From Bacilli bacterium (GTDB lineage: Bacteria > Bacillota_I > Bacilli_A > RFN20 > CAG-826): a stretch of 58,225 bases of DNA. Of the stretch, positions 41,411 through 58,225 are shown one piece after another. The notes below the pieces were generated by a model. It saw nothing but the letters and a program-made list of their open reading frames with translations. It searched no databases and had not been told where the DNA came from. The stretch's first letter is position 1. Each line of letters starts with the position of its first letter. The stretch spans positions 1-58,225 of the forward strand of contig JBGUXN010000019.1 of the NCBI GenBank assembly GCA_045222195.1, written 5' to 3'. The translations under genes were made by a program, and so were the position numbers.

Positions 41411-41453
41411 TGTTTAGTCCCCCTTATAACTTCACGTTGATTGTGGTTATTAC

Positions 41454-41499: not shown

Positions 41500-41590
41500 T
41501 TCAATATAAAAGGAATAAAAGAAAATATGCATTTTATTAATAAATAACAAGAAAAGTTTGATACAATGTTATTAAAAGGAGCATATATTA

Positions 41591-41761
41591 ATGTCAACAT
41601 TAGAACAAATCAAGGTTGCCTATGAAACTTTCGTGGAAGAAAACCAAAAGTTCGTCGAAAAAGGTAACAAAGCCGCTGCTGGTAGAGCTAGAAAAGCTTT
41701 AGCCGAATTAGCTAAACTCTGCAAAGCTCGCCGTGCTGAAATCTTAGAAGAAAAAAAGTAA
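41591..41761 (+). CDS. Histone H1-like (Hc1 family) small DNA-binding protein
   Basis: Manual translation MSTLEQIKVAYETFVEENQKFVEKGNKAAAGRARKALAELAKLCKARRAEILEEKK; AAAGGAG RBS, TG-N-TACAAT promoter, own terminator. Confidence 0.88.
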   Translation: MSTLEQIKVAYETFVEENQKFVEKGNKAAAGRARKALAELAKLCKARRAEILEEKK

Positions 41762-41775
41762 TCTAAACAAACAAT

Positions 41776-41807
41776 AAAAATTCCCCCACGATTGTGAGGG
41801 ATTTTTA
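41776..41807. terminator. Bidirectional intrinsic terminator
   Basis: AAAAATTCCCCCAC-GATT-GTGAGGGATTTTT. Confidence 0.75.
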
Positions 41808-41824
41808 TTTGGCAATAAATAGTT

Positions 41825-43216
41825 TTACTTAATAATTACAGTTGTATCAAGTTTAATGCCTATATTGATGTATTCATCTTTATTGGCGATTTGATTAATA
41901 CCATTATAAATCTTATTGCCGACTTCTACTGCTTTTGAAGTGTTATTAATAACCTGATCTAATTGTTGGCTTGTCATATCTAATTTTTGGCCTAGATATG
42001 AGAATCCAGAAATTAAAGTAGAATTGATTCTTCCTAGATTGGAATTGATTGAACTTAAACTACCAAGAACGGTTGCTTGGAATTTGTCGGTTTCGTACAA
42101 GTTCATCGCCTCTTTCCAAGTATCGGCTCTTCCGATATAAAGTAGCTCTGCTAAAGCGGAAATCGCTTGAGTTGTTTGATATTTCCCTGGTAAATCAAAC
42201 ATTTTCATGTAAATGTCTTTTTGTTCTAAAAGTGAAATAAACGTTTTCTTAATATCAGGCACTAGACTATTAAGATATTCATACTGCTCTTTCTGAAAAT
42301 CCATTATTGATTTTGCAAAATCATATATTTTCTTACAATACCCTAAAATCAAAGAAGCATACTGAAATGGGTATTCTCTATCTGTTGACTTTTCCACCGA
42401 TCTATATGTTGGTTTTGAAAACAAACCTCTTTTTTCAGCGACCATCTCTGTGGTGTTTATTCTTTCTCTAACGACAACTTCTATATCTTCAAAAGGAACA
42501 CCATCAGTAATGGCTCTCATAATGTTTGTTCCAAGTAATGGCATATCTTCTCTAACTTGATAATAAATTGTGCCAGTCTTTTTTGATTTAACGACTACTT
42601 CAGTAGTTGTGGTTTTGTGCTTTGTATAATCTCGGTTATTTTCAGACTTATATGTATTAAATTTCTTGAGTTCGTCTCGCATTTTAAAACACACATTATT
42701 CATGTATTCGCTATTTATTGCATCTGAATAATGCCTTAATGCCAAGTGAGGTGATAGTGCCCTTTGATAATTGCCGTTTCGATCCTTAAATTGGAATCTA
42801 ATATATTTTTCATCCACTTTAGCATCATAAGGTTTATTAACAAAATCTTGAGGAGTTAATTCTGGGAAGAATTTAAGTTTTAAACTATTAATTGCTTCTG
42901 GGGAATAGTCATTTGTTCTATTTCCGTCTTCCCCCACTAAACAGTTGTAGATGAAACTGGTGACCTTTTCGAAGGAAAATGCATATTCATACCAAGCGTG
43001 TAAAACGTTGATGAGTTGTTCTTTATTTTGTGGCGAATCAGTTTTTTCTTCAGCCTTTTTCTCCACCGCAGCATTAGAGGCATTATCTTCTACTTCAACT
43101 AATAGGCCTCTAGCTTCTTCCAAACTATATTCTGTTCCGCATTCTTTACAGACAAAAACACCATTTTCTTTTTTAATTTGTGAAGAGCCACAAATTTGGC
43201 ACATCATTTTCTTCAT
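41825..43216 (-). CDS. Hypothetical protein with N-terminal Zn ribbon and helical C-terminus
   Basis: CQICGS...CKECGTEYS; GRADTWKEAMNLY; AAGGAG RBS. Confidence 0.75.
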   Translation of the reverse strand: MKKMMCQICGSSQIKKENGVFVCKECGTEYSLEEARGLLVEVEDNASNAAVEKKAEEKTDSPQNKEQLINVLHAWYEYAFSFEKVTSFIYNCLVGEDGNRTNDYSPEAINSLKLKFFPELTPQDFVNKPYDAKVDEKYIRFQFKDRNGNYQRALSPHLALRHYSDAINSEYMNNVCFKMRDELKKFNTYKSENNRDYTKHKTTTTEVVVKSKKTGTIYYQVREDMPLLGTNIMRAITDGVPFEDIEVVVRERINTTEMVAEKRGLFSKPTYRSVEKSTDREYPFQYASLILGYCKKIYDFAKSIMDFQKEQYEYLNSLVPDIKKTFISLLEQKDIYMKMFDLPGKYQTTQAISALAELLYIGRADTWKEAMNLYETDKFQATVLGSLSSINSNLGRINSTLISGFSYLGQKLDMTSQQLDQVINNTSKAVEVGNKIYNGINQIANKDEYINIGIKLDTTVIIK

Positions 43217-43326
43217 AAAAAAGTCTCCTTACTTTTAAAGCAAAAATATGTGATTATATCACCATCATTTTATTTAAAAATAACTTCTTAATAAAGAACA
43301 AATAAAACTTTCTTATAAATAATATC

Positions 43327-43351
43327 AACGGCCGCTTTATACACGGCCGTT
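43327..43351 (-). terminator. Hairpin, probable terminator
   Basis: AACGGCCG-N9-CGGCCGTT just downstream of the 43386 stop. Confidence 0.6.
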
Positions 43352-43385
43352 ACTATCTTTTTTTATTTAGAAATATGTCTATTAA

Positions 43386-44120
43386 TTATTGGGCTAATAA
43401 TCCTCGATAATAATCGTATAAAGGAGAATCGTTACTAATCTTCTGATCTCCTACTCCATTGAATGGATCATTGCCTTCGCTTATTAATCTTTTTTGATAA
43501 ATAAAGAAACTATTTTCTTCATAAGTGAATCCAGATAGATATTTATTATCACCAACATCTTTAGAGATAACTGCTTTATAAGATGATTTAGATGTATTAA
43601 ATGAAGCATTTGCTTTATCTAATACACTTAAAGAGATATCACCATCTAAGATATGATTATTATCTTCTTTTAATAAATATGATACGAAGTTATCGTATCC
43701 ATTTTTATCACTAGGATAATTAACATCACTTGCATAATAGTAATAAACTTTAGATTCACTACTAATAACAATATTTAAATTAAATATAGATGGATAGTTA
43801 TCTTCATAAGCCACAACATTAACGGTTTTTAATGTATCAGCGTCATATCCATCAAATGTCATTTGTTTATTTACTATATCAATAAATACATCCGTAATCT
43901 TATTATTTCTTTCAGTATCTATTGGTAACTCACTATTACTATTACTTTTATTATTAGAAGAAGAACATTTCTTTAAACCTAATAAAGTTAATAAAAGAAT
44001 CATAGCGACAATTAATAAAGTAGATATCACACTGATAATGACCACTTTAATAGTCGAGTGCTTTTTCTCTTTATTATCTTCTAAATATTCTTTCTTATTC
44101 TCTTTATTATCGTTATCCAT
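43386..44120 (-). CDS. Hypothetical single-pass membrane protein
   Basis: Charged N-terminus MDNDNKENKK, one TM helix, Asn/Ser linker; very AT-rich; start moved to ATG 44120. Confidence 0.7.
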   Translation of the reverse strand: MDNDNKENKKEYLEDNKEKKHSTIKVVIISVISTLLIVAMILLLTLLGLKKCSSSNNKSNSNSELPIDTERNNKITDVFIDIVNKQMTFDGYDADTLKTVNVVAYEDNYPSIFNLNIVISSESKVYYYYASDVNYPSDKNGYDNFVSYLLKEDNNHILDGDISLSVLDKANASFNTSKSSYKAVISKDVGDNKYLSGFTYEENSFFIYQKRLISEGNDPFNGVGDQKISNDSPLYDYYRGLLAQ

Positions 44121-44233
44121 ATTAGTTATTCGGCGAGCAACGCACACTACGATGTGTTGCGAGCCATGTACTGTTTTGAATCCTTGTCTAAATTGTATAA
44201 ACGAAATGAACAAAAATCAATTGCAGTAAAGAA

Positions 44234-45274
44234 CTATAGAGGAAGAGAAATCTTTTTAGGTCTGAGTTTTAAGGTATTGCCAACAATTACTGTTTTCATG
44301 ATAAAAACTTCTATCCCTTTTTTAAATGCAATGTCAGTAATTGCTTTTTTATCATATTCGCTAATCTTTTCTCCTAAATAAATGGCTTTCGGAACTATTT
44401 TGCCAACGTTTACGAAAACATCATTTACCTGGCCTATAAATACATTGTTGTTATAACAAACGAGTCTCCATTCATTTTCATAACTCCAAGGCATCTTTTT
44501 TCTACAATAAACGTTCTGCATAAAGAAGTTTATTTTTTCCATACTACGATTCTTCGCAGACATTTCGAGCACAATGTTTAAAGGATTATATGTTTCTCCT
44601 TTACTAACTTTGTCTAGAAAGACATCAATTATTTCAATGTATATATCAGATGCATCATACTTTTCATTAGTGTAAACAACCGGTAATAAAGGATGCTCTA
44701 TTATTTCAGCTTCATCTAAATAGCCTTTCAAAAAATCTAGTTGTTGAACAAGGCTGTTCATCATCATCTGATGATCTTTGCTTAGCTCGCACAAATCATA
44801 ATAGTCATATTCAAGCGCAAAGCCAGTTGCCATATCAGCGTAATGGGCCCACATTATTTCTTGCGTAACATCGGTTGAAAAACATGCGAGTGCATAAACG
44901 TTATTATCAAACTTAATACTAGGAGCCAAAACGTTTGAATATAGTAAATCAACCAATTTATCAATCTGGTTTTTGTTTAGACCACTATCGATTAATAGAC
45001 TTTCTAACAAAGAACCATCTTTTAGGAGCCTGTTCTTAATGTGGCTTTTAATTTTCTTGGAAGAAAACCTAATGGTTGCATCATATGGGTCGTTAAAGGC
45101 GGAAGTGCAAGTAGCGAAAAGATCGTCGTTGAGAAACTGCTGAATAGTATGTTTGTTGATAGGCCTATATCTAAAAAGAGAGAAATCCTCATCGGGAATA
45201 GTAATGTGTAAATTGATACTATCTCCATTACGAACTTTTTCAACTTTATAGTGTTTGTTTTTAGCAATCCTCAT
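44234..45274 (-). CDS. DUF2971-family protein
   Basis: LFRYR, FNDPYD, ACFS...MWAHYAD...GFALEY, KKMPWSYENEWR, AIYLG. Confidence 0.85.
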   Translation of the reverse strand: MRIAKNKHYKVEKVRNGDSINLHITIPDEDFSLFRYRPINKHTIQQFLNDDLFATCTSAFNDPYDATIRFSSKKIKSHIKNRLLKDGSLLESLLIDSGLNKNQIDKLVDLLYSNVLAPSIKFDNNVYALACFSTDVTQEIMWAHYADMATGFALEYDYYDLCELSKDHQMMMNSLVQQLDFLKGYLDEAEIIEHPLLPVVYTNEKYDASDIYIEIIDVFLDKVSKGETYNPLNIVLEMSAKNRSMEKINFFMQNVYCRKKMPWSYENEWRLVCYNNNVFIGQVNDVFVNVGKIVPKAIYLGEKISEYDKKAITDIAFKKGIEVFIMKTVIVGNTLKLRPKKISLPL

Positions 45275-45304
45275 AACTAATTAATCTCGTTGCTTGCTTA
45301 ATGC

Positions 45305-45697
45305 TTATTTGAAAAACTCAAAGACATTAATAATTGGCAAAACATATGCATGAATGTTTGACGCACCAGTAATTGTCGAGATTAGTTGTCTCAAATATGG
45401 AAAGAGAACTTGCACAGAAGTGAATTTAATAAAGCTTTGCCCTTCTGGTGATTGCTTCCAAGATTCACAAATAAATGATCCACAAACAGTGGCATTAACG
45501 CCAAAAGGAACTTCGCCTTCTTTGCAGATTTTGATGGAAAGTTTTACAATCGCTTTATCTGCATCAACTTCAACGATATCTCTCTTGAGCTCGGGATTAA
45601 TGTTTATTTTTTTCCCTGAAAAAGAAGAATATGTATCAATATCAAGTGTGTAGTTGATATTTTCAACCCAATACTTTTCAAGTCTCATATTAAGCAT
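45305..45697 (-). CDS. SecB-like chaperone
   Basis: PFGVNATVCGSF, VLFPYLRQLISTIT, LPIINV; GAAGGAGG RBS; overlaps the antitoxin stop. Confidence 0.88.
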   Translation of the reverse strand: MLNMRLEKYWVENINYTLDIDTYSSFSGKKININPELKRDIVEVDADKAIVKLSIKICKEGEVPFGVNATVCGSFICESWKQSPEGQSFIKFTSVQVLFPYLRQLISTITGASNIHAYVLPIINVFEFFK

Positions 45698-46229
45698 TGC
45701 AATTGACCTCCTTCAATTTATATGCTCTTTGTTTAAAAGTCGTTTCAATAGATTGTTTTTGGCTTTCTTCTTGGTAAATGGAATTTAAAACAATCCAGCC
45801 AGCAGAAATATATTCGTATCTGTGTAAGCCAAATAATTCTGGGTGTTTATCCAATAGCACAATAAGCAAATTAATCGTTTTATCTTGAATCGCGCAGTTC
45901 TCATATCTCGCGATATTCTTTTCTCCGCAATTAATTAATTTTGCGAGTTTCTTTTGTGTAAGGTGATATTTTTCTCTGATTGCAATTATTTCATCGCTAG
46001 TCAGAAGACCAACTTTTTTCTTGTATGCGTCATAGATTCTTCTTTGGTTGTCTTTCTCAATTTCGTATACGAACACCTTATTTCCGCATTCATCACAAAA
46101 AGCCTCTGTTATGAGTTCTTTAATCTTTACATCTTTCACAACATATTCCTTTAAAAGGCTTCTTGTTGAATAATGTGTTTCTTTGTCGCAATTTACGCAA
46201 TAAATCTTTGTCATAATCATACGCTCCAT
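45690..46229 (-). CDS. MqsA-like antitoxin (Zn finger + XRE HTH + C-terminal extension)
   Basis: CVNC...CDECG, YDAYKKKVGLLTSDEIIAIREKYHLTQKKLAKL..CGEKNIARYE; about 45 extra C-terminal residues; true start may be 46220 or 46214. Confidence 0.88.
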   Translation of the reverse strand: MERMIMTKIYCVNCDKETHYSTRSLLKEYVVKDVKIKELITEAFCDECGNKVFVYEIEKDNQRRIYDAYKKKVGLLTSDEIIAIREKYHLTQKKLAKLINCGEKNIARYENCAIQDKTINLLIVLLDKHPELFGLHRYEYISAGWIVLNSIYQEESQKQSIETTFKQRAYKLKEVNCNA

Positions 46230-46580
46230 TTACCTGTCTTCATGAAAACTAATTACTGCAATATATCTGTTTTTATTGTATGGTAGAACTTTAATGTAAA
46301 TTCTCAAACCGAAAGCGCTCTTTTTAAAAATCCATAATTTGCGCTCTTTACGATTGCTGTCATAGTGCGTCACAGGACCAGCAACATAATCTGCGGCTGT
46401 CAAACTGTTCACTATTGCTTCAGCATCTTCCCACTCTTTTCCAATGCGGACTAGAAACTCTAGAGTATCTATCCTAGGTTCATCGGTTCCAAACGAATCG
46501 AAAGTCATGCTATGATCCGCAAGTTTTGCACGAGAACAAATGGCTATTACATCATTAAGTTCTAATTCACCATTGTTCAT
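46230..46580 (-). CDS. MqsR-like (RelE superfamily) toxin
   Basis: LTAADYVAGP, LWIFKK, IYIK, ISFH terminal motif; directly upstream of the MqsA-like gene. Confidence 0.85.
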   Translation of the reverse strand: MNNGELELNDVIAICSRAKLADHSMTFDSFGTDEPRIDTLEFLVRIGKEWEDAEAIVNSLTAADYVAGPVTHYDSNRKERKLWIFKKSAFGLRIYIKVLPYNKNRYIAVISFHEDR

Positions 46581-46677: not shown

Positions 46678-46700
46678 AAAAAAAGCGCTATCACTAGCGC
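46678..46700 (-). terminator. Intrinsic terminator of the polysaccharide locus
   Basis: Minus strand GCGCTA-GTGA-TAGCGC followed by T7. Confidence 0.8.
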
Positions 46701-46730
46701 CATATGATAACTTGGTGTTATTAATAATCC

Positions 46731-47714
46731 CTAACGATATAGCCTGATAGTTTGTTTAAAGCTCTCTTCAAAAGCAATCTTTGGATTCCAGCTAAGCTCT
46801 TTCTTAATTTTGGAACAATCTAAAGCGTACCTTAGATCATGCCCTTTTCTATCAGGAACAAAAGATATTAATGATTCTGGTTTATTAAGTTCTTTTAATA
46901 TAGTTCTTACTATTTCTAAATTGCTCTTTTCGATATTAGAACCGATATTGTATATTTCACCATCTTTGCCTTTTTCTAATATTGCTAATAAAGCGGAGCA
47001 ATGATCTTCTACATATATCCAATCTCTAATGTTAAGACCACTACCATAGATTGGTAATGGTTTATCATTTAATGCATTTCTAATCATCAGTGGTATTAAC
47101 TTATCTACATATTGATGTGGGCCATAGTTATTACCGCTTCTAGATATGGTGACAGGTAATCCATATGTACGATGATAAGAGAGCACTAATAAGTCTGCAT
47201 TAGCTTTAGAAGCGCTATATGGAGATGATGGTTTTAAAGGTGAATTCTCATTAAATAACAAATCTGGTCTATCTAATGGCAAATCGCCATATACTTCATC
47301 TGTGCTTATTTGATGGAAACGTTTAATACCATATTTAAGACAAGCATCTAATAATACTTGTGTACCTAATACATTTGTTTCAAAGAAGATATTTGGTTCT
47401 TCTATTGATTTATCCACTGATGATTCAGCGGCAAAGTTAACAACGATATCTGGTTTTTCTTTTTCAAATATCTTATTTATACCTTCTTTGTTTCTTATGT
47501 CTTCCTTATAAAACACAAAATTAGGATTATTGATTGCTTCATCCAAATTGCGCATATCAGCGGCATATGTTAAAGCATCAACGCACACCACTTTCCAGTT
47601 AGGTCTTTCTTTTAAAATAAAAGATACAAAATTGGAGCCGATAAAACCAGCTCCACCCGTAATTAGAATAGTAATTGAAGAGTTTAAAATATTACTCACC
47701 TTTGCCAATCCCAT
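46731..47714 (-). CDS. rfbB: dTDP-glucose 4,6-dehydratase
   Basis: ITGGAGFIGSNF, DALTYA, NFAAES, STDEVYGDL, PSSPYSASKA, RDWIYVEDH, DRKGHDLRY; true start may be GTG 47699. Confidence 0.95.
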   Translation of the reverse strand: MGLAKVSNILNSSITILITGGAGFIGSNFVSFILKERPNWKVVCVDALTYAADMRNLDEAINNPNFVFYKEDIRNKEGINKIFEKEKPDIVVNFAAESSVDKSIEEPNIFFETNVLGTQVLLDACLKYGIKRFHQISTDEVYGDLPLDRPDLLFNENSPLKPSSPYSASKANADLLVLSYHRTYGLPVTISRSGNNYGPHQYVDKLIPLMIRNALNDKPLPIYGSGLNIRDWIYVEDHCSALLAILEKGKDGEIYNIGSNIEKSNLEIVRTILKELNKPESLISFVPDRKGHDLRYALDCSKIKKELSWNPKIAFEESFKQTIRLYR

Positions 47715-49021
47715 TCATATTTTTGAATATCATCTTCAAGAAGATCGTCACCCATTTGAACTTCAATGATGTGCAACACTTCATCTAAGGCTCTTATAGA
47801 GTATTTATCTTCTTTTCCAATAGAAACGCTGTCGCCAGCATTAATCATTCTCACAACGTCGTTTATAAGTAATTGACCACTACCTTTAACAACTGTCCAG
47901 GTTTCGAATCTATGTTCGTGGCTTTGATAACTAATATTCTTATTCGGCAAGATTACTAATTCTTTTGTTAAACATTTAGAACCATCTGGATAAGATTGGT
48001 AATCTAAAACTCTATATTCGCCCCATTCTTTCTTTTCAAACATAGGACGATTCTTTGGTACGTATTTTTTCAGTTGAGTACTAGCGATTTTATCTGATAC
48101 CAAAATGCCGTCTGGAGATGCCGCTACGACAACATCTTTTAGACCTAGCGCAACGATTGGAATTTGTAGTTCGTTAACAACATGAACATTTTGGCAGTTC
48201 TCGCCCAAAATGGCGTCGCCACCAACAGCGTCTTCCATAGCTTCAGTAAACGTGTTCCAAGTGCCTAAGTCTTTCCATTCTCCATCATACTCAACAACTT
48301 TGATACTGTTTTCTTTTTCCGCAACAGCATAGTCAAAGCTAATCTTGTTTAGGCTGGAGTAATTGTCAAATAAATCTTTATACAAATTAAAGCCACACAA
48401 TTCTTTTGCTTTATTTAATATGTAAGAGATTTTAAGAGCAAAGACACCACCGTTCCATAAGGCGCCTTGTTTAATATATTCTTCTGCTTTTTTGGTGTCT
48501 GGTTTCTCTTTAAATTCAACGCTATCTTTTTTCGGAATGATATAACCATATTTTTCAGATGGGTATGTTGGTTTAATTCCCATCAAAGTTAGATTGCTCT
48601 GGCCCGCAATGTCATACATCTTTTTAATAGCTTTGAAGTATCCAATCTCCACAAGAGGGTCAACAGGGCAAATAACCACAGAGTCATCTTCTGAAGCTCC
48701 TAAAACATCATGCAAATATGCTACTGATAATGCAATAGCAGGGAAGGTGTCTCTTCTGCATGGTTCAATCGATATTTCAACTTTTTCTCTCAATTGTCTC
48801 TTGATGGAAGCAACTTGTGTTTCGGAAGTCGCAACAATAATTCTTGCATCAAACGATACTTCTTTAATCATTCTATAGACTCTCTGGACCATTGATTCAT
48901 GCTGCCCATCAGGTCTTTTTAGAATTTTTAAGAACTGTTTTGAGCGGACTTCATTAGAAAGAGGCCAAAGTCTAGTTCCTGATCCACCAGACAATAAAAC
49001 CACATTCATTCTAGATTTCAT
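47696..49021 (-). CDS. manC: Mannose-1-phosphate guanylyltransferase-like nucleotidyltransferase with C-terminal cupin
   Basis: LLSGGSGTRLWPLS...KQF, EP..RDT, YGYI, FKEKP, ISFDYAV.EK, WKDLGTW, WGEY, SYQSHEHR.E.W. Confidence 0.88.
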   Translation of the reverse strand: MKSRMNVVLLSGGSGTRLWPLSNEVRSKQFLKILKRPDGQHESMVQRVYRMIKEVSFDARIIVATSETQVASIKRQLREKVEISIEPCRRDTFPAIALSVAYLHDVLGASEDDSVVICPVDPLVEIGYFKAIKKMYDIAGQSNLTLMGIKPTYPSEKYGYIIPKKDSVEFKEKPDTKKAEEYIKQGALWNGGVFALKISYILNKAKELCGFNLYKDLFDNYSSLNKISFDYAVAEKENSIKVVEYDGEWKDLGTWNTFTEAMEDAVGGDAILGENCQNVHVVNELQIPIVALGLKDVVVAASPDGILVSDKIASTQLKKYVPKNRPMFEKKEWGEYRVLDYQSYPDGSKCLTKELVILPNKNISYQSHEHRFETWTVVKGSGQLLINDVVRMINAGDSVSIGKEDKYSIRALDEVLHIIEVQMGDDLLEDDIQKYEWDWQR

Positions 49022-49032: not shown

Positions 49033-50235
49033 CTAATCTCTTCTAAACAAATCTCTTGTATATACTTTTTCTTCAACATCATCTAAACAGCTATCATATC
49101 TATTCGCGATAATACAATTACATTGTTGCTTGAACTTATCTAAATCATTAACCACTAATGAGCCAAAGAATTCAGAGCCATCTTCCAAAGTTGGTTCATA
49201 AATAATCACTTTAACACCTTTGGCCTTAATCCTTTTCATAACACCTTGAATAGAAGATGCTCTAAAATTATCACTATTGGATTTCATAGTTAATCTAAAA
49301 AGACCAATGGTTATCTTGTTAGCTTTCTTTTCGGTAAATCCCGCTTTTACTAATACTGCGTCAGCGATATGATCTTTTCTTGTTCTATTTGATTCAACAA
49401 TTGCAGATATTAAGTTTTCTGGAACATCGTTGAAATTTGCTTTCAATTGTTTTGTGTCTTTTGGCAAACAATAGCCACCATATCCAAATGATGGGTTATT
49501 GTAATGAGTACCAATTCTTGGATCTAAGCAAACACCATCGATAATATCTTCAGTGTTTAATCCTTTCATTTCTGCATATGTGTCCAATTCATTAAAATAA
49601 GACACTCTGAGGGCCAAATAAGTATTAGCAAATAGTTTTACTGCTTCTGCTTCTGTTAAACCCATAAAAAGAACTGGAACGTCCTTTTTGATGGCGCCGT
49701 CTTTTAACAAATTAGCAAACGTTTCTGCTTTATCTTTTTGTTCTGGTTCACACCCAACAATGATTCTAGACGGGAAAAGATTGTCTTCCAATGCTTTAGA
49801 TTCTCTAAGAAATTCGGGTGAAAACAAAATGTTGTTTGTGTTGTATTTCTTTCTAATTGACTTGGTATAACCGACTGGAATAGTTGATTTGATTACCATT
49901 ACAGCATTTTTGTTAACCGACAATACTAATTCAATTACCTGTTCAACATATCTTGTGTCAAAGAAGTTTTTGACTGGATCGTAGTTTGTGGGGGCAGCAA
50001 TAACGACAAAGTCTGCATCTTTGTATGCGCCAGCACCATCTAGTGTTGCCACAAGATTTAATTTTTCTTCTCTAAAATACTTTTCAATATAGTCGTCTTG
50101 AATAGGACTAATTCGGTTGTTCACCTTATCAACCTTTTCAGGAATAACATCCACTAAAGTAACTTCATTATTTTGCGAAAGCAATGTCGCGATTGATAAA
50201 CCAACATAGCCAGCACCAGCAACAGCAATTTTCAT
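49033..50235 (-). CDS. ugd: UDP-glucose 6-dehydrogenase
   Basis: [42 protein letters not shown]. Confidence 0.96.
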
Positions 50236-50294: not shown

Positions 50295-51830
50295 TTAAGG
50301 CTGATCTCCTTCTGGCTTTTTTTTAGTAAATTTAGAACGAATTTTAGCAAAAGCGCTCATTACAAACATTTCTTTAAAAATGATTAAGCACATTCCATAA
50401 ACAAAGACGCCAACAACAACTATTAAAAGTGTATTAACGATTGATGGTTGCAACAATTGCCCCATAAAAAAGCAAGGCACAAACATAATTGCAGCTGAAA
50501 CAAGATATTTCCAACAACAGCCAATAACCTTAAGAGGATTAAAAACTTTCCTAAGCATGATGATTTGAATCAAAAGAATAAAAAACTCAGCAGACACTGA
50601 GGCAATTGTTGCACCGACTGATTTGAAATAATAAATAAGTATTAGATTTAGCAGAAGATTCAGCGCTGCACCACAAGTAACTGAAATAGTATATTTGGTG
50701 TCTTGGCCGGATGGTATAAGATACTGAATACCAAAAACGTTATTTAAACCAATTGCTAGAATCAATGGTGAAAACAACATCATCAAAATAGGAACCGGCT
50801 CATAACCATCACCAAAAAACCATGGTGCAAAAATTCTAGCCACGCAAAGAACGCCTGCCATCATAGGCAGCGCCAGCAAGTAAGCAAACTTCAAGGCCTT
50901 CCAAACATTATCTTTTGCTTTGTCTTCTTGACCGTTCGCAAAATAATAAGCATTTCTTGGAATCATTACAGTGCCTAAAGCAGTAATTGTAGTAACAAAT
51001 ACTTTAATAATCTTCTCTGCTTGATTGTAAAAGCCATTTTCAATATCGGCGATTTTTTTAACAACTTCTTCTCCGCCAACTTCCACTACTGTTTCTCCAG
51101 GAATCATAATACCAATCATTGTTTTATCAAGCATCGTATAAATTGAAACGGCAATTGTCGGAATAAACAATCTTAAACAAGGACCCAAGTGTTTAAGAGG
51201 TTTCAAATCTGAGATTTTTACCTTCACCAAATATTTTCTTAAAAACGGTATCATCATAAGAGCAGTAAAAACTGGGCTCAAACCTTGAATAAGTGTGTAG
51301 ATCCATAAATCGTTTCTGGTTTTTACAAAGATAAAAATGCAGCATATTGTTATAGTTTTTGAAATAACATTTCTAATTGATATTTGTTTAAAATCTTCGT
51401 TGCCTTGAAAGATAAAAGTCGTATCAATGGCTATTGCCAAAACGTTGGCGCTCAATATCAACAAAAGATATTTGTAGCTAGATAATTTTGGGATTAAAAA
51501 AGCCAAAGCAAGAAGCAGCAAAAAAGAAAAAACAGTAGAAAAAACACGAATAATACATATTTCCCAAAAGATTTTAGATTGTTCGTCTTTATTATTTTGG
51601 TGTTTAGCTATTGCTCTTTGAGCGTAATAAGAAAAGCCTAGAGCAGCAAACAAAGTGAAATAAGATACTACCGAACTCGAAAAAGAAAATTGTCCAATTC
51701 CATCTGACTGAAGAACTCTTGAAAGATAAGGTGTAACAACAACGGGAACAACAATCAAAAATATTTGATAGATTAGATTGTAAACAAAATTCTTTTTGAT
51801 GCTCTTACTTTTTTTAGAATCTTTTTCCAT
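50295..51830 (-). CDS. wzx: Wzx flippase
   Basis: SIKKNFVYNLIYQI, TPYLSRVL, FQGNEDFK, YTMLDKTMIG, VMIPR; multi-TM. Confidence 0.92.
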   Translation of the reverse strand: MEKDSKKSKSIKKNFVYNLIYQIFLIVVPVVVTPYLSRVLQSDGIGQFSFSSSVVSYFTLFAALGFSYYAQRAIAKHQNNKDEQSKIFWEICIIRVFSTVFSFLLLLALAFLIPKLSSYKYLLLILSANVLAIAIDTTFIFQGNEDFKQISIRNVISKTITICCIFIFVKTRNDLWIYTLIQGLSPVFTALMMIPFLRKYLVKVKISDLKPLKHLGPCLRLFIPTIAVSIYTMLDKTMIGIMIPGETVVEVGGEEVVKKIADIENGFYNQAEKIIKVFVTTITALGTVMIPRNAYYFANGQEDKAKDNVWKALKFAYLLALPMMAGVLCVARIFAPWFFGDGYEPVPILMMLFSPLILAIGLNNVFGIQYLIPSGQDTKYTISVTCGAALNLLLNLILIYYFKSVGATIASVSAEFFILLIQIIMLRKVFNPLKVIGCCWKYLVSAAIMFVPCFFMGQLLQPSIVNTLLIVVVGVFVYGMCLIIFKEMFVMSAFAKIRSKFTKKKPEGDQP

Positions 51831-51838
51831 TGGTACAA

Positions 51839-52597
51839 TTAAAAAACAAGCACTTTTGCTTGGATAGAATTACTTTCAAAAATGTTGACAACTCTTTCAA
51901 TCTCGTTGTCAGACATGGTTTGAAATGGAACATAATCGATGCCCAAATCCTTGTATTTTTCTGATCCAATATTGTGAACAGAAAAAATCTCAATGGTTTG
52001 CAAATTGTATTCTTTTAGAATACGAACCAAACTATTAATATTATCTTCATCGTCAGTAAATCCAGGGACCAAAGGAAAGCGCGGATGAATCTTGTGAAGC
52101 ATATTTCTCGCTTTTAAACAGTCGAGGTTTTGTAAAAAAAGATCCAAATCAGCAGAGAGAATGCTGGAAGCGCGTTCATTCAATAGAATCTTGAAGTCAA
52201 CATATAAAGAGTCAATATTTTCAATGACTGATTCTAAATGCTGTGTCGGGACAAACAACGAAGTCTCTACGGCAATGTTCACGCCATTATTTTTCAAACA
52301 GCCTATCAAGTATTTGGTTTTTGGCAAGGTAAGCAAGCATTCTCCACCAGAAAAAGTAACGCCACCATCTGGATAATAATAATGTTTATCTCTCAGAATC
52401 AAACTAGCAATTTCTTCTTCTGACATTAATCGTCCATAAACATTACCACTTTTGCCTAAGACAACATCATTCCTTAAATTTTCTGGGTTGCAACACCAAG
52501 GGCAACAAATTGAGCATCCTTTAAAAAAAACTGTTGTACGAATGCCCGGCCCATCAGTAAGACAAAATCTTTGAATGCTACCTACTAATACCTTCAT
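51839..52597 (-). CDS. Glycyl-radical enzyme activating enzyme (radical SAM)
   Basis: DGPGIRTTVFFKGCSICCPWCCNPE, GGVTFSGGE, ETS, RFPLVPGFTD; overlaps the GRE stop. Confidence 0.93.
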   Translation of the reverse strand: MKVLVGSIQRFCLTDGPGIRTTVFFKGCSICCPWCCNPENLRNDVVLGKSGNVYGRLMSEEEIASLILRDKHYYYPDGGVTFSGGECLLTLPKTKYLIGCLKNNGVNIAVETSLFVPTQHLESVIENIDSLYVDFKILLNERASSILSADLDLFLQNLDCLKARNMLHKIHPRFPLVPGFTDDEDNINSLVRILKEYNLQTIEIFSVHNIGSEKYKDLGIDYVPFQTMSDNEIERVVNIFESNSIQAKVLVF

Positions 52598-54536
52598 TTA
52601 TTTCTGCTCTTTTAATTAACAGCATCTTATATTCTTTTGGCAAGTCATTAAAATATGCGGAGAAGCCCCACACTCTAACAATTAAATCCTTATGGCTTTC
52701 TGGATGAAGCAAAGCGTCTCTAAGAACCTTGCTCGATAAAACATTAATTTGAATCTCAAAAAAACCATTTGAAACAGAAAGCATCATAAAATTAGTCAAT
52801 TTATCAATGTTCATTTCGATGAAACGCGGAGAAACAATGGCGTCTATTACATTTCCATCGATGTTATGATTCGAATAGTCGATTCTAGCTCCGAAATTAA
52901 CCAATTCCGTTAAAGGAAGTTGCTTGTTTGAAGAAATATGAACTCCGAATGGATCGCCATTTCTGCGCCCATCAAACGAAGCAGGAGAACGATGACTTGA
53001 AGTAATGTAAGAAGGAGAAGAAAGACCAAATTTATAATTGTGCCCATATTTATTCTTGTTGTTATCACAAAACTCATCAAGGCACGCAACAATCTGGTTG
53101 ACTAAGGCAATCACTTCATTGCTGTCCTCTCCAAACATTTCACCTGTATTTGACAACTCAGAATAGTCTTTATCGATAAAATTGTTTTTCCTGGCCTCGT
53201 TGAACTCGCTCAAAGAAAATACGTGTTTTTCGAAAACAAGTCTCTTAATGTTAATCAAAGAATTTATGCCATTCGAAAAACCAGGATTCAAAATACCAAA
53301 CGAATTATAAACAACAGATCCATCAGACAAATCGGATTTATCTTCAAAAGAATTATGAAGGAACAAAGACTGAATAGGGTCTTTCTCAAATTCAATCAAA
53401 TCAGCCTTGATAACACTACGCTTCAAATCTTCTATAACAAAAAGGCGAAATGAAGCCATAAAATCTTCAAAGGTTGAAAAAACAATACTGTGTTCTAAAG
53501 ATGAATCAACGAAGCGAGAAACGCTTTCCGACAAAATGAAACTAAACACATTGTTTTGATCGGTAGATTTTCCTGGAATCAGAGGCTCCCAACAAGCTGA
53601 AGTGCCATAATTGTATGCATCATCTTCGCAGTAATTGTTATTAATCAGGCCTGGAATAATGACATTATCGTTAGAAAGAAGCGGGCTGCCAATTCCGGTT
53701 GATATGCAAAGAAGTGATTTTTTCATTAGCCCGATTGGCATATTGTCAGAACAACGAACAAGTATTTTTGGATCTGGTAATTTGAGTTCGGCAATTGCAT
53801 CAACAAACATATACGTTAACTGAGAACAAAAGTATTGTCCTGCCAGTTGCTTTCCCCCGAGCACAATAATTTGACCAGTATCTCCAAGTAAAGTGTTGCT
53901 CTTATATTTATAGTGTCTATGCAAGCATGTCAAAAAATCCTTTACAGCAAGGTATGCTTCTTCAAAAGATATGAAACCATTTGCTAAATCGCTTTCCAAA
54001 ATAGGAGAAAGAATATAATCAAGCCTGCCTAAACCAACTAACGTGTGATTTGTTTGCCAAAGTAGCTGATTAACTAAAAGAATTCTTTGAAGCGACTCCT
54101 CAAAATGAGTAGATTCTTTATTTTTAAAATCAATTAAATACTTGGAGAACTTTTCTTCTTTATTTTTTCTGACGATGTTGTTGATAGAATTGATAATGAT
54201 GTCTATCGTATCGCTATTGTAACTGTTTCTCAGCTCTTCAAGAGACTTTGAAAGAGCAACCGAATAATCAATTGGAATGTTACCAATAATCAATCCTTTG
54301 TTAGCAAAAGCCACCTTTTCATCTATAAAATAAAAAAATCTTCCTGTTTGCTTTGGATAATGTATTTTTGAAAAAAGTCTTGTTAAGTCTTTCCCAGAGA
54401 TACAGTTATACTTTTTAACCGCAAAAGCCTCAAGCAAAATCTTAATCTTAGAGTTAGTTCTTTTGTTTTTTTTCACTTGAGAACACGCAGTTTTGTACTT
54501 AAATAATTCGTTTTTTAAAAAAGATTTAATTCCCAT
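52578..54536 (-). CDS. Glycyl-radical enzyme (PFL superfamily), short form of unknown substrate
   Basis: LGRLDYIL, Cys loop YGTSACWEP, ASFDGRRNGDP, Gly loop DLIVRVWGFSAYF; ATG 54536 preferred over TTG 54551. Confidence 0.9.
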   Translation of the reverse strand: MGIKSFLKNELFKYKTACSQVKKNKRTNSKIKILLEAFAVKKYNCISGKDLTRLFSKIHYPKQTGRFFYFIDEKVAFANKGLIIGNIPIDYSVALSKSLEELRNSYNSDTIDIIINSINNIVRKNKEEKFSKYLIDFKNKESTHFEESLQRILLVNQLLWQTNHTLVGLGRLDYILSPILESDLANGFISFEEAYLAVKDFLTCLHRHYKYKSNTLLGDTGQIIVLGGKQLAGQYFCSQLTYMFVDAIAELKLPDPKILVRCSDNMPIGLMKKSLLCISTGIGSPLLSNDNVIIPGLINNNYCEDDAYNYGTSACWEPLIPGKSTDQNNVFSFILSESVSRFVDSSLEHSIVFSTFEDFMASFRLFVIEDLKRSVIKADLIEFEKDPIQSLFLHNSFEDKSDLSDGSVVYNSFGILNPGFSNGINSLINIKRLVFEKHVFSLSEFNEARKNNFIDKDYSELSNTGEMFGEDSNEVIALVNQIVACLDEFCDNNKNKYGHNYKFGLSSPSYITSSHRSPASFDGRRNGDPFGVHISSNKQLPLTELVNFGARIDYSNHNIDGNVIDAIVSPRFIEMNIDKLTNFMMLSVSNGFFEIQINVLSSKVLRDALLHPESHKDLIVRVWGFSAYFNDLPKEYKMLLIKRAEINEGISR

Positions 54537-54599
54537 AAATACCTTTGCCAAAAAATATTCAATTCAAATCGATGGAGATAATAATCGCGCAATAAAAAA

Positions 54600-55316
54600 C
54601 TAAAGCAGATTGAATGGCGGTTTATCGAGTTGATAATCGAGATTTTTATTTCTCTTTTTCAAAAATCTTGCTGGTATACCGCCATAAATAGAAAATGGCT
54701 CAATGTCCTTTGTGGCTATTGAACCGCAAGCAAGAACCGCACCTTCGCCAACACTAACATTAGGAAGGATAGTAGAATTTGAACTAACCCAGGAATGTTT
54801 TTTTATAACAACGGCCCCACCATTGCAAGAAAAAGAACTGCTTTGAGTGTCATGCTGCAATGTGTAAACCTGAACATTTGATGAGATGTTGACGTTGCTT
54901 TCAATAGTAATGCTGTTTCTTCCATCCAACAAGCAATTATCACCTATGATGGAATTGTCACCGATAGTAATTTTGAATCCATCCCTAATTTCCAGTCCAT
55001 GACATATTCTAACTTTTTTTCCTATCTTTAAATGAAAAAGATGTTTGTAGAAAAACAAACGGATAAATTCAAAAGGCATATAACCAATCTTAAATTGAAG
55101 ATACTTGTAGAAGCTCTCATACATAGAACGAATAATCGACTGTTTATTAACAGACTTCACGGAATTAGATGGACTATTTTTAGAAGAATTGTATTTTTTC
55201 TTTCTTCTCAAATCTACAAAATAAACGAAAACAACCATTAGAATAAAAACTATTATCTTAATGGCTAAAATAGAAGAAAAGACTACAACAACAATAAAAG
55301 TAAACAAATCCATCAA
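54600..55316 (-). CDS. Polysaccharide O-acyltransferase (LbH, WcaF/maltose acetyltransferase-like)
   Basis: Hexapeptide repeats, YTLQHD, ILPNVSVGEGAV, YGGIPAR; N-terminal TM. Confidence 0.88.
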   Translation of the reverse strand: MMDLFTFIVVVVFSSILAIKIIVFILMVVFVYFVDLRRKKKYNSSKNSPSNSVKSVNKQSIIRSMYESFYKYLQFKIGYMPFEFIRLFFYKHLFHLKIGKKVRICHGLEIRDGFKITIGDNSIIGDNCLLDGRNSITIESNVNISSNVQVYTLQHDTQSSSFSCNGGAVVIKKHSWVSSNSTILPNVSVGEGAVLACGSIATKDIEPFSIYGGIPARFLKKRNKNLDYQLDKPPFNLL

Positions 55317-56380
55317 TCAATAATCTCCTTATACAATTCCGTATATTTTGCTAGCAAAACATTGGGATCCAACTCAGATTTACGTAGCTGAAGGGCTTGA
55401 GAAAAATTGTAAGAAGTAGTGAAAGTAGAATTGATGACAAAACTTAACGAATTGATGTCTTCCGCTTTGAAAACGAGACCAATCCCATATTCTTTTATTT
55501 CAAATCCTATGCTATTGCAATCCGGACCTATAATTGGGATTTCTAATTGAATTGCTTCAATCATCGGCCCCGAAATCCCATTGAAAGTTTTTCGATATGG
55601 CAAAACCAAGTAATCGGCCGCACAAATACATAGAAAAAACTCTTCATCAGTCAAAACTCTATTAAGGCAGAAAAGTTTACCATTAAACTTTTCTGAAAAC
55701 CCATTGACGAAAGAGAAGTCAAAATCAGTAAATTTGCCAGCAATTAAAGCATCACACTCGTGCTCAAACGAAGATGAAGATTCTAAAAATAAATCAAGAC
55801 CTTTATAATATGAGGTCGCGCCAATCATAAGAAAAAGTTTATTATCAGTGACAATATTTAGTCTTTTCCTTGCTTCATCTTTGCTAACCTTTGTATACTG
55901 AAGGCAAGAAGGATAAGGAATGAGTTTAAGATTATTAATCCCCCTCATTTTTAACTTATTAAAAAGATAATCTGTCAAGACAATCCCACAATCAATTCTC
56001 TTACAAATCTGTTTTATTGAAAAAAGACCCAGCTTTGATTCGTTAACCCGATGGAATGTAACTATGGATTTGATTTTTCTTAAATAGGAAAGACCAAACC
56101 CAAAAAAAGGATACAGCTCGTCGCCGAAAAGAAAATGAACGATATCAGGTTTTACTTTTTTAATGATTTGTTTAATGTTTCGCATCCATCTCAAATACAC
56201 AAAAAAACTGCGATGCTTGAAACTGCCAAGTTCAAAGCATTCGAAATCTTTAAACTCATTAGGGAGACTTGGAAGGACAAGAATACTTTTCTGCTTGCTG
56301 TTAGACTTTGCCAAGATAGAACGCAAGTACGGAATATGATGACCAGTCAAAGAAAAATCAACATATAAAACAATATTCAT
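55313..56380 (-). CDS. GT-B glycosyltransferase (GT4-like)
   Basis: GHH..Y, PDIVHF, VTFH, YKGLD, ADYLVLPY....SGPMIEA; start moved to ATG 56380. Confidence 0.88.
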   Translation of the reverse strand: MNIVLYVDFSLTGHHIPYLRSILAKSNSKQKSILVLPSLPNEFKDFECFELGSFKHRSFFVYLRWMRNIKQIIKKVKPDIVHFLFGDELYPFFGFGLSYLRKIKSIVTFHRVNESKLGLFSIKQICKRIDCGIVLTDYLFNKLKMRGINNLKLIPYPSCLQYTKVSKDEARKRLNIVTDNKLFLMIGATSYYKGLDLFLESSSSFEHECDALIAGKFTDFDFSFVNGFSEKFNGKLFCLNRVLTDEEFFLCICAADYLVLPYRKTFNGISGPMIEAIQLEIPIIGPDCNSIGFEIKEYGIGLVFKAEDINSLSFVINSTFTTSYNFSQALQLRKSELDPNVLLAKYTELYKEIID

Positions 56381-56381
56381 A

Positions 56382-57749
56382 CTAGGCATCTCTCTTTCTA
56401 ATAACATTCCCTAGGAAAATGATACAGTAATAAACAATAAACGGGAGCAAGAAGCCGAACAATCGCAAAACAGTCGGAGCCAAACTTCCTCTTAAGATAA
56501 AAATCCAATATCCAAATAAGAAGAAATATAGTTTTGAAGTTATTCCGTTTTTTGATTTGCAAGCTCTTTTATCAATTGAGCAAGTAATTAGAGCGAACAA
56601 AAACGAATACAAAATGACACCAGCAACTCCGAAATCAATGAGGCCCTCCCCAATTAAAGGACAAGAGACATTAGAATATGCTGATGGGTAAAAATAGGTA
56701 ACAACCACTTCTCCAGAATTTATACCTTTGATTGGGAGAATAGCTCTAGGAACAAAGAAAAAAATGGAAGAAATGATTTGCTTCCCATACAAAACACCAT
56801 GGGCATCAACATATCTAATGGTTTGGCACAACATTGAATAAGCATCATAGTCAACGGCATTAAAAACGGAAGACAAATCAATGGTTAGTGAAAAGGTGTT
56901 GGTTGTATTAAAAAATTTAAATTGAGAAAAGAGAGGGTAAATGATTACGATTCCAACAACAAGAAGCAAGTCAAAAATGCCGTTTTTTCCAAGCTTTGTA
57001 AATGTTACACACAAAAGCCCACAATATGCAGACAAAGCCAAAAACCTATTGTTGGCAACGGGATTGTTTATCAAAAGGGCTAAAAGCAAAACAATTAAGG
57101 CAAAGGCTTTATTTTTCTTAGACGATTTTAAATAACAATAGTAAAAGCATGGAAAAGCTTTAAGGAAATAATCAATAGCAATATCAAAAATTGTGCCTCT
57201 ATTAAATTCAAAGCCATGTCTAATAAAAACATTTTGGAAACCAATGAATAATTGTATTGAGGCAATAATAAAAACAAAAAGGACAAGCAGAACAACATCA
57301 GTAGTTTTGGATCCAACTGGTGTTTTGTTTGATGTTTCTCTTATCCGGTGGTTAGGGCCAAAACACTTTACTACTACGAAAATGCAAAGGAAAAGCATTA
57401 TCAAAATGTTAGATCGGACGATTAAATTATCCTCAAACGCAAAGCCCCACGGACTATATGAGCCATAGATTTGAGACAAAGGAGATAATATGAAGAAGAT
57501 TAAGACGAAATACAGTGTAACCTTGTATAGACTGAAGGTTCTGTTCTTTTCTAAAACGATGGCAAAACAACATAAAAATAAATTAATGGCAAATGTAACT
57601 TTGGAAAGACCTGAAGCGGAGCATAAACCAAGAAGTCTAACTATAGGAACCAACAGCACAAGTAAAGCAACAAAAACTAATGGAATCAGATTGATTTCTC
57701 TTGTTTCTTTCCTGTGTGGAACATTAATTGTTGAATCAATTATATTCAT
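56382..57749 (-). CDS. wzy: Wzy-like polysaccharide polymerase
   Basis: About 11 TM helices with a loop YDAY...YGKQI...FFVPRA..P.K...SG and RGSL; same locus as wzx. Confidence 0.8.
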   Translation of the reverse strand: MNIIDSTINVPHRKETREINLIPLVFVALLVLLVPIVRLLGLCSASGLSKVTFAINLFLCCFAIVLEKNRTFSLYKVTLYFVLIFFILSPLSQIYGSYSPWGFAFEDNLIVRSNILIMLFLCIFVVVKCFGPNHRIRETSNKTPVGSKTTDVVLLVLFVFIIASIQLFIGFQNVFIRHGFEFNRGTIFDIAIDYFLKAFPCFYYCYLKSSKKNKAFALIVLLLALLINNPVANNRFLALSAYCGLLCVTFTKLGKNGIFDLLLVVGIVIIYPLFSQFKFFNTTNTFSLTIDLSSVFNAVDYDAYSMLCQTIRYVDAHGVLYGKQIISSIFFFVPRAILPIKGINSGEVVVTYFYPSAYSNVSCPLIGEGLIDFGVAGVILYSFLFALITCSIDKRACKSKNGITSKLYFFLFGYWIFILRGSLAPTVLRLFGFLLPFIVYYCIIFLGNVIRKRDA

Positions 57750-58225
57750 TTTGCTTTTCTAAATATCCAGTAGAACTTGAAATTAAACGCTCTAAGAAGT
57801 TTGAACTTAAAACTGCACAAACCATATTGTTTAGGAAACCTTCTTTTTAATTCGTCATTAAAAGATTTCAGTTCATTTAATGACACGGTTGATTCAGGAT
57901 ATCTGAACAAAACTCTATACGACATGTTCATAATGCGGGTCGTTCTTCTCAAGTAAAAAAGTCGAGTCTGCTTTTGAATGAACGATTGATTATCGTTGTA
58001 ATATGATAAGAGAGAAAATAAAACCTTAATCAATTGCTGTCTATTTTTGAATAAACTCTGAAGGCTAACGCTTTGTTCAGAGATTCCTTGTCGATAATTG
58101 TATAAATATCCATCATAAAAATAGATGGTTTTTGCATGAATAACAGGAAAGAGAATATATTCGGTGTCAACATAAAAACATTTTTCATCCAGTGGTTTGA
58201 AAACATTTTTTAGAAAAGATGAATT
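57746..58225 (-). CDS. GT2-family glycosyltransferase, C-terminal part (5' end outside the window)
   Basis: Frame open to the edge: ...LDEKCFYVDTEY...LYNYRQG..EQSVS... Confidence 0.75.
   Translation of the reverse strand, partial: NSSFLKNVFKPLDEKCFYVDTEYILFPVIHAKTIYFYDGYLYNYRQGISEQSVSLQSLFKNRQQLIKVLFSLLSYYNDNQSFIQKQTRLFYLRRTTRIMNMSYRVLFRYPESTVSLNELKSFNDELKRRFPKQYGLCSFKFKLLRAFNFKFYWIFRKAK

Follow-up and report, generated by a model that had tools for sequence, protein, structure and literature searches.

A predicted glycyl-radical enzyme family co-inherited with a Wzx-type flippase in the surface-glycan loci of strict anaerobes

What does a glycyl-radical enzyme (GRE) do inside an operon for surface polysaccharide? 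The question is raised by a 58,225-nt stretch of DNA (hereafter the window), which is the whole contig JBGUXN010000019.1 of a Bacilli bacterium (assembly GCA_045222195.1; genome of 1.45 Mb, 77% complete). The original prediction, made from the letters of the window, placed a GRE gene and the gene for its activating radical-SAM enzyme (activase; SAM, S-adenosylmethionine) co-oriented between an O-acyltransferase and the flippase gene wzx, with an 8-nt gap to wzx, and proposed an uncharacterised biosynthetic GRE in a polysaccharide context. The open reading frame (ORF) map agreed with this layout (Table 1), and the proposal was supported by a conserved genomic context, by co-inheritance with Wzx and by natural gene fusions. 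By its sequence the GRE is a member of a distinct GRE family outside every characterised one, and the family is co-inherited with one subfamily of Wzx flippases. We consider it very probably a glycan-biosynthetic enzyme; the co-inheritance with Wzx and the fusions are the strongest computational support for a role in glycan assembly.

The protein had been described as about 650 residues long, with a single-Cys loop SACWEP and a Gly loop RVWGFS; the gene encodes 652 aa, and both motifs are present. A short barrel like that of pyruvate formate lyase (PFL) and a glycyl-radical domain follow a basic N-terminal extension. The PFL-like profile PF02901 was matched at 7.6e-52 and 177 bits (cut-off 24.3), beginning at profile position 229 of 647, and Gly_radical PF01228 at 3.6e-11 and 44 bits (cut-off 22.2). 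Twelve NCBIfam GRE models were matched, all far below cut-off: the best, TIGR01774 (PFL2/glycerol dehydratase), gave 174 versus 678 bits, another gave 134 versus 1050, and the scores set for GD/PFL2 (GD, glycerol dehydratase), CutC, HypD, HpsG/HpfG, HPAD and IAD were not reached. With the true-PFL model TIGR01255, the GRE scored 41.6 bits against a cut-off of 994.2. A language-model search returned only generic PFL and CutC family names. When a profile of 24 family members was compared with the PDB, the best match was PflD (8id0; 1.5e-80, 275 bits), then CutC and glycerol dehydratase; GRE eliminases were matched at E 1e-72 to 1e-77 and PFL with only 53 bits. The AlphaFold model built on the family alignment (pLDDT 86.6, pTM 0.89) was placed by Foldseek at a TM score of 0.76-0.78 to propanediol and glycerol dehydratases and CutC (5i2g, 1r8w and 5fau) and to PflD. 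With all equivalog models below cut-off and 20-22% identity to the solved GREs, the protein did not cluster with a characterised catabolic GRE.

A word-indexed search yielded 787 relatives at E <=1e-5 among 8000 scored candidates. The best 120 were 566-807 aa long and 39-61% identical to the query, and were either unnamed or named 'pyruvate formate lyase family'. Taking one genome per species, 243 of 277 motif matches encoded a relative. The best 80 loci of these 243 relatives, together with the window, formed the context sample of 83 GRE copies in 81 loci, which was ORF-called (1132 ORFs) and BLAST-clustered, the clusters being named by Pfam and NCBIfam. The 80 loci came from Bacillota (59), Methanobacteriaceae (14), two unplaced genomes, and one each from Thermoplasmata, Eggerthellaceae, Aeromonadales, Breznakiellaceae and Mycoplasmatota. 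The typical length in the family is about 650-690 aa, and its carriers include Bacillota, Methanobrevibacter, Thermoplasmata and Spirochaetota. An exhaustive search of 1.84 billion representatives with a hidden Markov model (HMM) gave about 95-100 representative clusters at or above roughly 470 bits and a second group at 300-460 bits, whose matches started only at profile position 85-150. Distribution is patchy: two of 300 genomes from the window's class contained a family member (with one sister-type match besides), as did 2 of 100 Lachnospiraceae genomes, a count that leaves out the centre genome G301, whose possession of the GRE was the reason for choosing it. Some carriers are in culture (Murimonas intestini DSM 26524, Lachnospiraceae bacterium P6A3 and Breznakiella homolactica RmG30), which makes the question of function directly testable.

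The motifs CWEP and RVWGFS were present in all 83 copies, and the window's gene has an open frame; no sign of pseudogenisation or other decay was seen in either respect. SACWEP aligns with the GCVEP loop of glycerol dehydratase (Cys433) and of PflD, exactly one Cys is invariant in the family, and the C-x-E motif, here C-W-E, is invariant as well. The contrast drawn originally between the Cys-Cys pair of true PFL and the C-x-E loop of eliminases agrees with statements in the GRE review PMC13450708, in which C-x-E is assigned to 1,2-eliminases and also to isomerases. The superfamily is shared with PflB, whereas the window's GRE is without the Cys-Cys pair. With the GRE 1,2-eliminases (glycerol dehydratase, 1,2-propanediol dehydratase, CutC) the GRE has in common the fold, the C-x-E Cys loop, an RVxG Gly loop and an adjacent radical-SAM activase. 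It differs from them in its low identity, in being about 110-190 aa shorter than the solved chains, in an activase without the ferredoxin insert and in a context of glycan biosynthesis rather than of catabolism or a microcompartment; in addition, each of its two loops contains a Trp (C-W-E, RV-W-G), and the family has distinctive signature motifs.

The activase matched TIGR02494 with 190.3 bits (cut-off 174.35) in two aligned stretches that skip the profile's ferredoxin-like insert; CX3CX2C is present, and the ferredoxin-like auxiliary-cluster insert is lacking. Among the family activases, CX3CX2C was found in 71 of 73 and CX2CX2CX3C in 0 of 73, with a median length of 256 aa. In size the window's activase resembles PFL-AE (about 250 aa, a single cluster). 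Because this GRE was the only Gly_radical match in the window's genome, an assembly 77% complete, the activase would be dedicated to it, and the best explanation of the two genes is a working GRE with a dedicated, minimal activase. In the fetched flanks (at most 10 kb) of L028, L043, L051, L067, L075, L078 and L045 no activase was found, and CWEP and RVWGFS were intact in these copies. L045 (Eggerthellaceae) was additionally without a glycan gene nearby; the activases of such copies may be encoded elsewhere in the genome.

At least one glycan-synthesis gene was found in the fetched flanks of 78 of the 83 copies, and three of the five exceptions have very short flanks; the homologues are thus not mostly outside polysaccharide loci. 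An activase cluster was in the fetched range of 74 copies and a single Wzx-type flippase cluster in that of 61. When only the 42 copies flanked by 5 kb or more in both directions are counted, an activase accompanied 38, Wzx 33 and Glf (UDP-galactopyranose mutase) 26. Further neighbours among the 83 copies were two clusters of family 2 glycosyltransferases (GT2; GT, glycosyltransferase), counted at 33 and 34, and DUF4422, counted at 22. The 131 further neighbour families are heterogeneous and include GT2, Wzy_C, pyruvyl transferase, acyltransferases and others. Cluster 10 (L005:12637-13605 and 16 further loci) is a 322-aa protein whose gene recurs just upstream of the GRE or in the interval from activase to glf; it adjoins the GRE or the activase in eight loci. 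No match to it was found in Pfam, NCBIfam or the PDB, and a language-model search gave a weak GT2-like lead.

Alternatively, the GRE could be a catabolic or salvage enzyme for a free sugar or polyol, carried along as a passenger in variable glycan loci. This would be in keeping with statements in the same review that the PFL-like GREs characterised so far all have roles in catabolism or primary metabolism (PMC13450708), and with the nearest sister GREs, which lie in sugar-catabolic loci in four of four cases examined. These sister GREs (L095-L098) are likewise short (669-784 aa), are 31-34% identical and, at 377-433 bits, score higher on the family profile than any solved GRE. They have an ACWE-like Cys loop, an RVWG Gly loop and activases of 281-301 aa. 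Their loci encode GH2, GH43, GH38, FGGY kinases, sugar ABC/MFS transporters and LacI/AraC regulators, and also a xylose-isomerase-like barrel and an aldo-keto reductase. The sister clade appears to consist of uncharacterised catabolic GREs that act on carbohydrates. For the glycan-locus family itself we regard catabolism as the least probable explanation, to the point of being very improbable. Of its 83 copies, 78 sit in glycan context, with no transporter, kinase or regulator recurring beside them; the window's GRE is translationally coupled within its operon; the family is inherited together with Wzx and GT2 and in some cases fused to them; and its signature motifs GDTGQ, PDPK and GNVxD are absent from all four sister proteins. 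Because its nearest sisters sit in sugar-catabolic loci, the glycan-locus family looks like a carbohydrate-acting GRE lineage that was recruited, probably in the direction from catabolism to biosynthesis.

In 52 of the 83 copies, Wzx directly adjoined the GRE or the activase, in three gene orders: Wzx-GRE-activase (32 copies and 2 divergent), GRE-Wzx-(activase) (12 copies) and GRE-activase-Wzx, the window's type (5 copies and 1 inverted). In the 48 loci with one copy of each, the median pairwise identity was 0.47 for the GRE, 0.44 for Wzx and 0.48 for the activase, and the distances were correlated (Spearman) at 0.61 for GRE and Wzx and at 0.87 for GRE and activase (permutation p 0.002). Since kin are not independent, the GRE-Wzx correlation demonstrates co-inheritance and not co-evolution. 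Twenty control Wzx proteins from Lachnospiraceae genomes without the GRE were 0.19 identical among themselves, compared with a median of 43% among the GRE-associated Wzx, and 0.18 identical to the latter, and on the joint Wzx tree the label 'GRE-associated' required 3 changes versus 18 in shuffles. The best explanation of these data is that GRE and activase, with a conserved Wzx and often a GT2, form a mobile cassette in the surface-glycan loci of strict anaerobes. One Wzx from a genome without the GRE (L120:9874-11322, G367) is 51% identical to the GRE-associated subfamily and is not in a glycan locus; its neighbours are a 650-aa FAD-binding protein, an SDR, an OYE-like flavoprotein and a PrsW protease.

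Natural fusions join the GRE to both types of neighbour. In P0171 (1125 aa) and P0204 (1053 aa), Wzx forms the N-terminal part (548-561 bits on the subfamily HMM) and the GRE the C-terminal part; for P0171, identity to the window's Wzx is 44% over 479 residues, and identity to the window's GRE is 38% over 601. GT2-GRE fusions were found in P0136, P0137 and P0161 (987-992 aa) and in a 1017-aa ORF of L069 (Thermoplasmata). The GT2 at their N-terminus belongs to cluster 5, which in many loci is encoded directly upstream of the GRE or Wzx and lies within 3 kb of 25 of the 83 copies. This GT2 has thousands of relatives, all named 'glycosyltransferase family 2', and no useful solved relative was found. 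One-off assembly errors do not explain the fusions, since full-length versions turned up repeatedly in independent assemblies: P0171 and P0204 are each represented by three full-length copies from different assemblies, and in the P0137 cluster, with its 146 members, 988-aa forms were seen on up to 16 contigs. The N-terminal stretch of about 45 residues in the family has a mean net charge of +7.5, compared with -1.2 per 45 residues elsewhere, and a net charge of at least +6 was found in 48 of 67 copies (67 of 80 GRE rows, 13 having been dropped with the anchor motif unmatched). The basic stretch has low model confidence and is the linker in the fusions.

How would such an enzyme act? On the best reading of these sequences, the GRE modifies a sugar of a lipid- or nucleotide-linked repeat unit, acting as a radical eliminase or isomerase of the CXE type. 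We infer radical formation, the type of chemistry, a lipid-linked substrate and a product along the following lines. The activase, with one [4Fe-4S] cluster and SAM, would place a radical on the Gly of RVWG, and the radical would move to the single Cys of SACWEP (Cys315, P0001 numbering). The thiyl radical would take a hydrogen from a hydroxyl-bearing carbon of the sugar while Glu317 of C-W-E deprotonates that hydroxyl, and the resulting ketyl radical would expel the neighbouring oxygen substituent or open a C-O bond, giving a deoxy-keto or isomerised sugar. The step would fall after a GT has added the target sugar and before Wzx flips the unit. Both termini of Wzx are cytoplasmic. That the GRE acts at the cytoplasmic face of the membrane on a polyprenyl-linked repeat unit before flipping seems to us close to an even call. 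The full proposal, a first biosynthetic branch of GREs in which sugar tailoring at the membrane face is physically coupled to Wzx (by separate proteins in the window, by fused ones in other species) and puts a deoxy-keto or rearranged sugar into the surface glycans of strict anaerobes including Methanobrevibacter, is offered tentatively, at a little under even. Its product would be a glycan modification that oxygen precludes and that is particular to gut anaerobes. In its favour, the best profile match in the PDB, PflD, acts on 1,5-anhydromannitol-6-phosphate, and the sister GREs are in sugar loci. The GRE is 21% identical to PflD/YbiW and shares its CXE loop. According to the relevant part of PMC13450708, PflD/YbiW convert 1,5-anhydromannitol- or 1,5-anhydroglucitol-6-phosphate to 1-deoxyfructose-6-phosphate by radical cleavage of the ring C-O bond, the substrate being a sugar phosphate that resembles a pyranose. 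They serve the catabolic 'anhydroglycolysis', whereas the present family is found in glycan loci with Wzx and GTs.

The main rival moves the same chemistry to a soluble nucleotide sugar, whose unusual product a GT would then transfer; the form tested was radical dehydration of the exocyclic, glycerol-like 5,6-diol of UDP-galactofuranose. The tailoring genes of such loci usually encode nucleotide-sugar-modifying enzymes, and a GT2-GRE fusion could channel the donor to the transferase. Glf (TIGR00031, 403 bits versus a cut-off of 303.75) lay within 10 kb of 44 of the 83 GRE copies, often in the order GRE-activase-Glf, compared with 11 of 146 listed control Wzx matches in 101 Lachnospiraceae genomes, an imperfect control for which 150 of 289 Wzx matches were listed. 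Glf also adjoins the GRE in loci of Methanobrevibacter, Breznakiella, Aeromonadales and Mycoplasmatota, and glf was present in five of five further GRE genomes tested and in the window's own genome. The association proved to be bound to lineage: Glf was adjacent in 20 of 22 copies from unclassified Clostridia versus 2 of 20 from Lachnospiraceae, the latter being the same as the control rate in that family. On the GRE tree, from which 3 of the 83 copies (<560 aa) were left out, the Glf label was clustered (16 changes versus 26.9 in shuffles), and the window's clade of nine is without adjacent Glf. Mere presence of glf in a genome was rejected as evidence, being uninformative when 96 of 101 Lachnospiraceae genomes have the gene regardless. 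The only glf of the window's genome is on another contig (L083:9887-11209, G000 contig C3), in a galactose-utilisation neighbourhood. UDP-galactofuranose as a general substrate was rejected, as the enrichment was gone in the taxon-matched comparison and follows clades of the GRE tree; the link is kept as a sub-hypothesis for the Glf-adjacent clade. The Wzx-GRE fusions, moreover, point to a membrane step. We consider action on a soluble donor the less likely alternative, at appreciably under even. At L083, Glf has 440 aa, about 70 of which form an N-terminal extension; a GT2 gene adjoins it, and genes for a galactokinase-like protein, an MFS transporter and a GH2 are close by.

A further possibility is a non-sugar substituent: from a small diol or 2-oxo acid the GRE would produce, for example, an aldehyde or acyl precursor, to be attached to the polymer by a neighbouring acyltransferase. 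A WcaF-like acetyltransferase gene is directly upstream of the GRE in the window, with a related one in L054 and L057, Acyl_transf_3 genes are found in some loci, and passages of PMC13450708 describe all characterised CXE GREs as acting on small molecules. Acyltransferase clusters accompany only a minority of copies, however (cluster 31 in 4, and clusters 15, 19 and 23 in 7, 6 and 5 of the 83), and fusion of the GRE to Wzx or GT2 is hard to explain in this way. PFL-type formation of acyl-CoA is not expected because the Cys-Cys pair is missing, which also weighs against a substituent. We judge this explanation improbable.

Several observations weigh against a GRE tailoring the lipid-linked repeat unit together with Wzx. 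Nine GRE copies are without an activase nearby, 21 of 81 loci are without the subfamily Wzx in the fetched range, and related loci are non-independent samples. A conserved follow-up enzyme (reductase, aminotransferase) was considered and rejected, as no recurrent reductase or other such enzyme was found among the 131 further neighbour families. The Wzx subfamily is not exclusive to the GRE, an idea rejected because 8 of the 20 controls, all from genomes without the GRE, belong to or border it (309-602 bits on the subfamily HMM; subfamily median 697), and two inspected among those eight lie outside glycan loci. GRE active sites are buried, as described in part of PMC13450708, and hence fit a small soluble substrate better than a lipid-linked oligosaccharide. 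The GT-GRE fusion is equally consistent with a GRE that makes the nucleotide-sugar donor of the GT. Finally, the position of the general-acid His164 of glycerol dehydratase and of His169 of PflD is an invariant Asn in the profile alignment (N86 of P0001), and His446-Asp447 of glycerol dehydratase is replaced by invariant Asn-Asn. The GRE, as judged from these alignments, carries the C-x-E signature of eliminases and isomerases but lacks the diol-dehydratase acid. Because the acid His is replaced, classical diol dehydration is not a given; this leaves open a leaving group that may need no protonation, or an isomerisation of the PflD type.

Radical loss of a substituent beside a hydroxyl group on a nucleotide-bound sugar under anoxia is familiar from class III ribonucleotide reductase and from DesII of TDP-desosamine synthesis. 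The former is a GRE that needs extra Cys residues or formate as reductant, whereas the latter is a radical-SAM enzyme and not a GRE. No specific sequence relationship of the window's GRE to either was detectable, and its family has one invariant Cys. In the literature covered, which did not extend to subscription journals and supplements, no GRE was described in the context of a polysaccharide, capsule, O-antigen or flippase. The terms polysaccharide, capsul-, UDP, nucleotide sugar and galactofuranose are all absent from the full text of the review of June 2026, PMC13450708, and a part of it lists entire GRE clades and all archaeal PFL-like GREs as being without function. The single co-mention of glf and glycyl radical, in passages of PMC7478625, has no bearing on this subject. 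We rate the GRE platform as known and a biosynthetic, flippase-coupled role as unprecedented. If the role is confirmed, the family would be a new functional class, a GRE hard-wired to glycan assembly, where known GREs degrade molecules or serve primary metabolism. The cassette and its flippase and GT fusions span Bacillota, Spirochaetota, Pseudomonadota, Methanobacteriota and Thermoplasmatota, and the Methanobrevibacter members would be the first PFL-like GREs with an assignable role in Archaea. An oxygen-sensitive sugar modification would be predicted on the surfaces of gut and rumen anaerobes, with a bearing on phage receptors, immune recognition and methanogen biology.

In the window, a string of co-oriented minus-strand genes spans 46.7-58.2 kb (Table 1), and the presence in one operon of Wzx, the GT4, the GT2 fragment and the Ugd-like, ManC-like and SDR genes agrees with a Wzx/Wzy-dependent polysaccharide locus. 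The hairpin behind the SDR gene is the probable end of the operon. Neither an initiating phosphoglycosyl transferase nor a chain-length regulator was seen in 46.7-58.2 kb, and the contig ends inside the locus at 58225. The GRE and activase frames share 20 nt, and the 8 nt that separate the activase stop from wzx are positions 51831-51838. The GRE ORF extends to a TTG (52578-54551); the ATG at 54536 is preceded 5 nt upstream by the Shine-Dalgarno-like word AAAGG, and the database copy P0001 likewise starts there. With the start at this ATG, the interval 51839-54536 first singled out comprises exactly the activase and the GRE. The T-rich coding style that the GRE had been said to have in common with the neighbouring GT genes was confirmed, and the Wzx and Wzy genes have it too: over 50-58 kb the plus strand shows an AT skew of +0.06 to +0.18, and over 40-50 kb (Ugd, ManC, SDR) the skew is negative. 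The Wzy-like protein is 32% identical to an ORF in the GRE locus L018.

Table 1. Coordinates of the glycan operon in the window and of the sister GREs in other genomes.
Feature	Position	Strand	Length	Remarks
GT2-type glycosyltransferase, C-terminal part	57746..58225	-	159 aa	Cut by contig end; zero Pfam matches; 33-37% identity to C-terminal halves of cluster-4 GT2s from GRE loci
Wzy-like polymerase, polytopic	56382..57749	-	455 aa	PF14296 E 3.3e-4, below cut-off (19.9 vs 26.6 bits), yet covering residues 32-446
GT4 glycosyltransferase	55313..56407	-	364 aa	Glycos_transf_1 34.3 bits, cut-off 26.4
WcaF-like hexapeptide O-acetyltransferase	54600..55316	-	238 aa	Hydrophobic N-terminus; Hexapep; NF007797 (WcaF family) 2.2e-30, below cut-off
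GRE	52578..54536	-	652 aa	PFL-like and Gly_radical; 657 aa if TTG at 54551 is used
GRE-activating radical-SAM enzyme (activase)	51839..52597	-	252 aa	Radical_SAM, Fer4_12; TIGR02494
Wzx-type MOP flippase	50295..51830	-	511 aa	PF01943 (Polysacc_synt) 97 bits, cut-off 28.2, 1.7e-27; member of the GRE-associated Wzx subfamily
UDP-glucose/GDP-mannose dehydrogenase family (Ugd-like)	49033..50235	-	400 aa	Pfam
Mannose-1-phosphate guanylyltransferase-like (ManC-like)	47696..49021	-	441 aa	NTP_transferase and C-terminal MannoseP_isomer
NDP-sugar 4,6-dehydratase-like SDR	46731..47714	-	327 aa	Final operon gene; GDP_Man_Dehyd 8.7e-81, Epimerase 4.2e-69
Terminator-like hairpin, then T-run	46684..46701	-		Directly 3' of the SDR gene
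Sister GREs	L095:7992-10085, L096:8043-10052, L097:7734-9791, L098:7265-9619			Other genomes

Outside the operon, a response-regulator receiver domain and an ABC-transporter ATPase domain are encoded together in a single plus-strand ORF at 28042-29232. This ORF is part of a series of large ones on the plus strand, and those at 24861-26717, 29232-30827, 30827-33322 and 35087-37966 are without a Pfam family. Large predicted surface or membrane proteins with a terminal VanZ-like domain are encoded at 17244-20042 (plus strand) and 38001-39860 (minus strand), the former additionally having three Big_2 repeats. The glycan operon is separated from the remainder of the window by a minus-strand block (41060-46580) of small to medium ORFs with 30-33% GC; some resemble HTH or zinc-ribbon proteins by eye, and the block may be mobile or defence-related.

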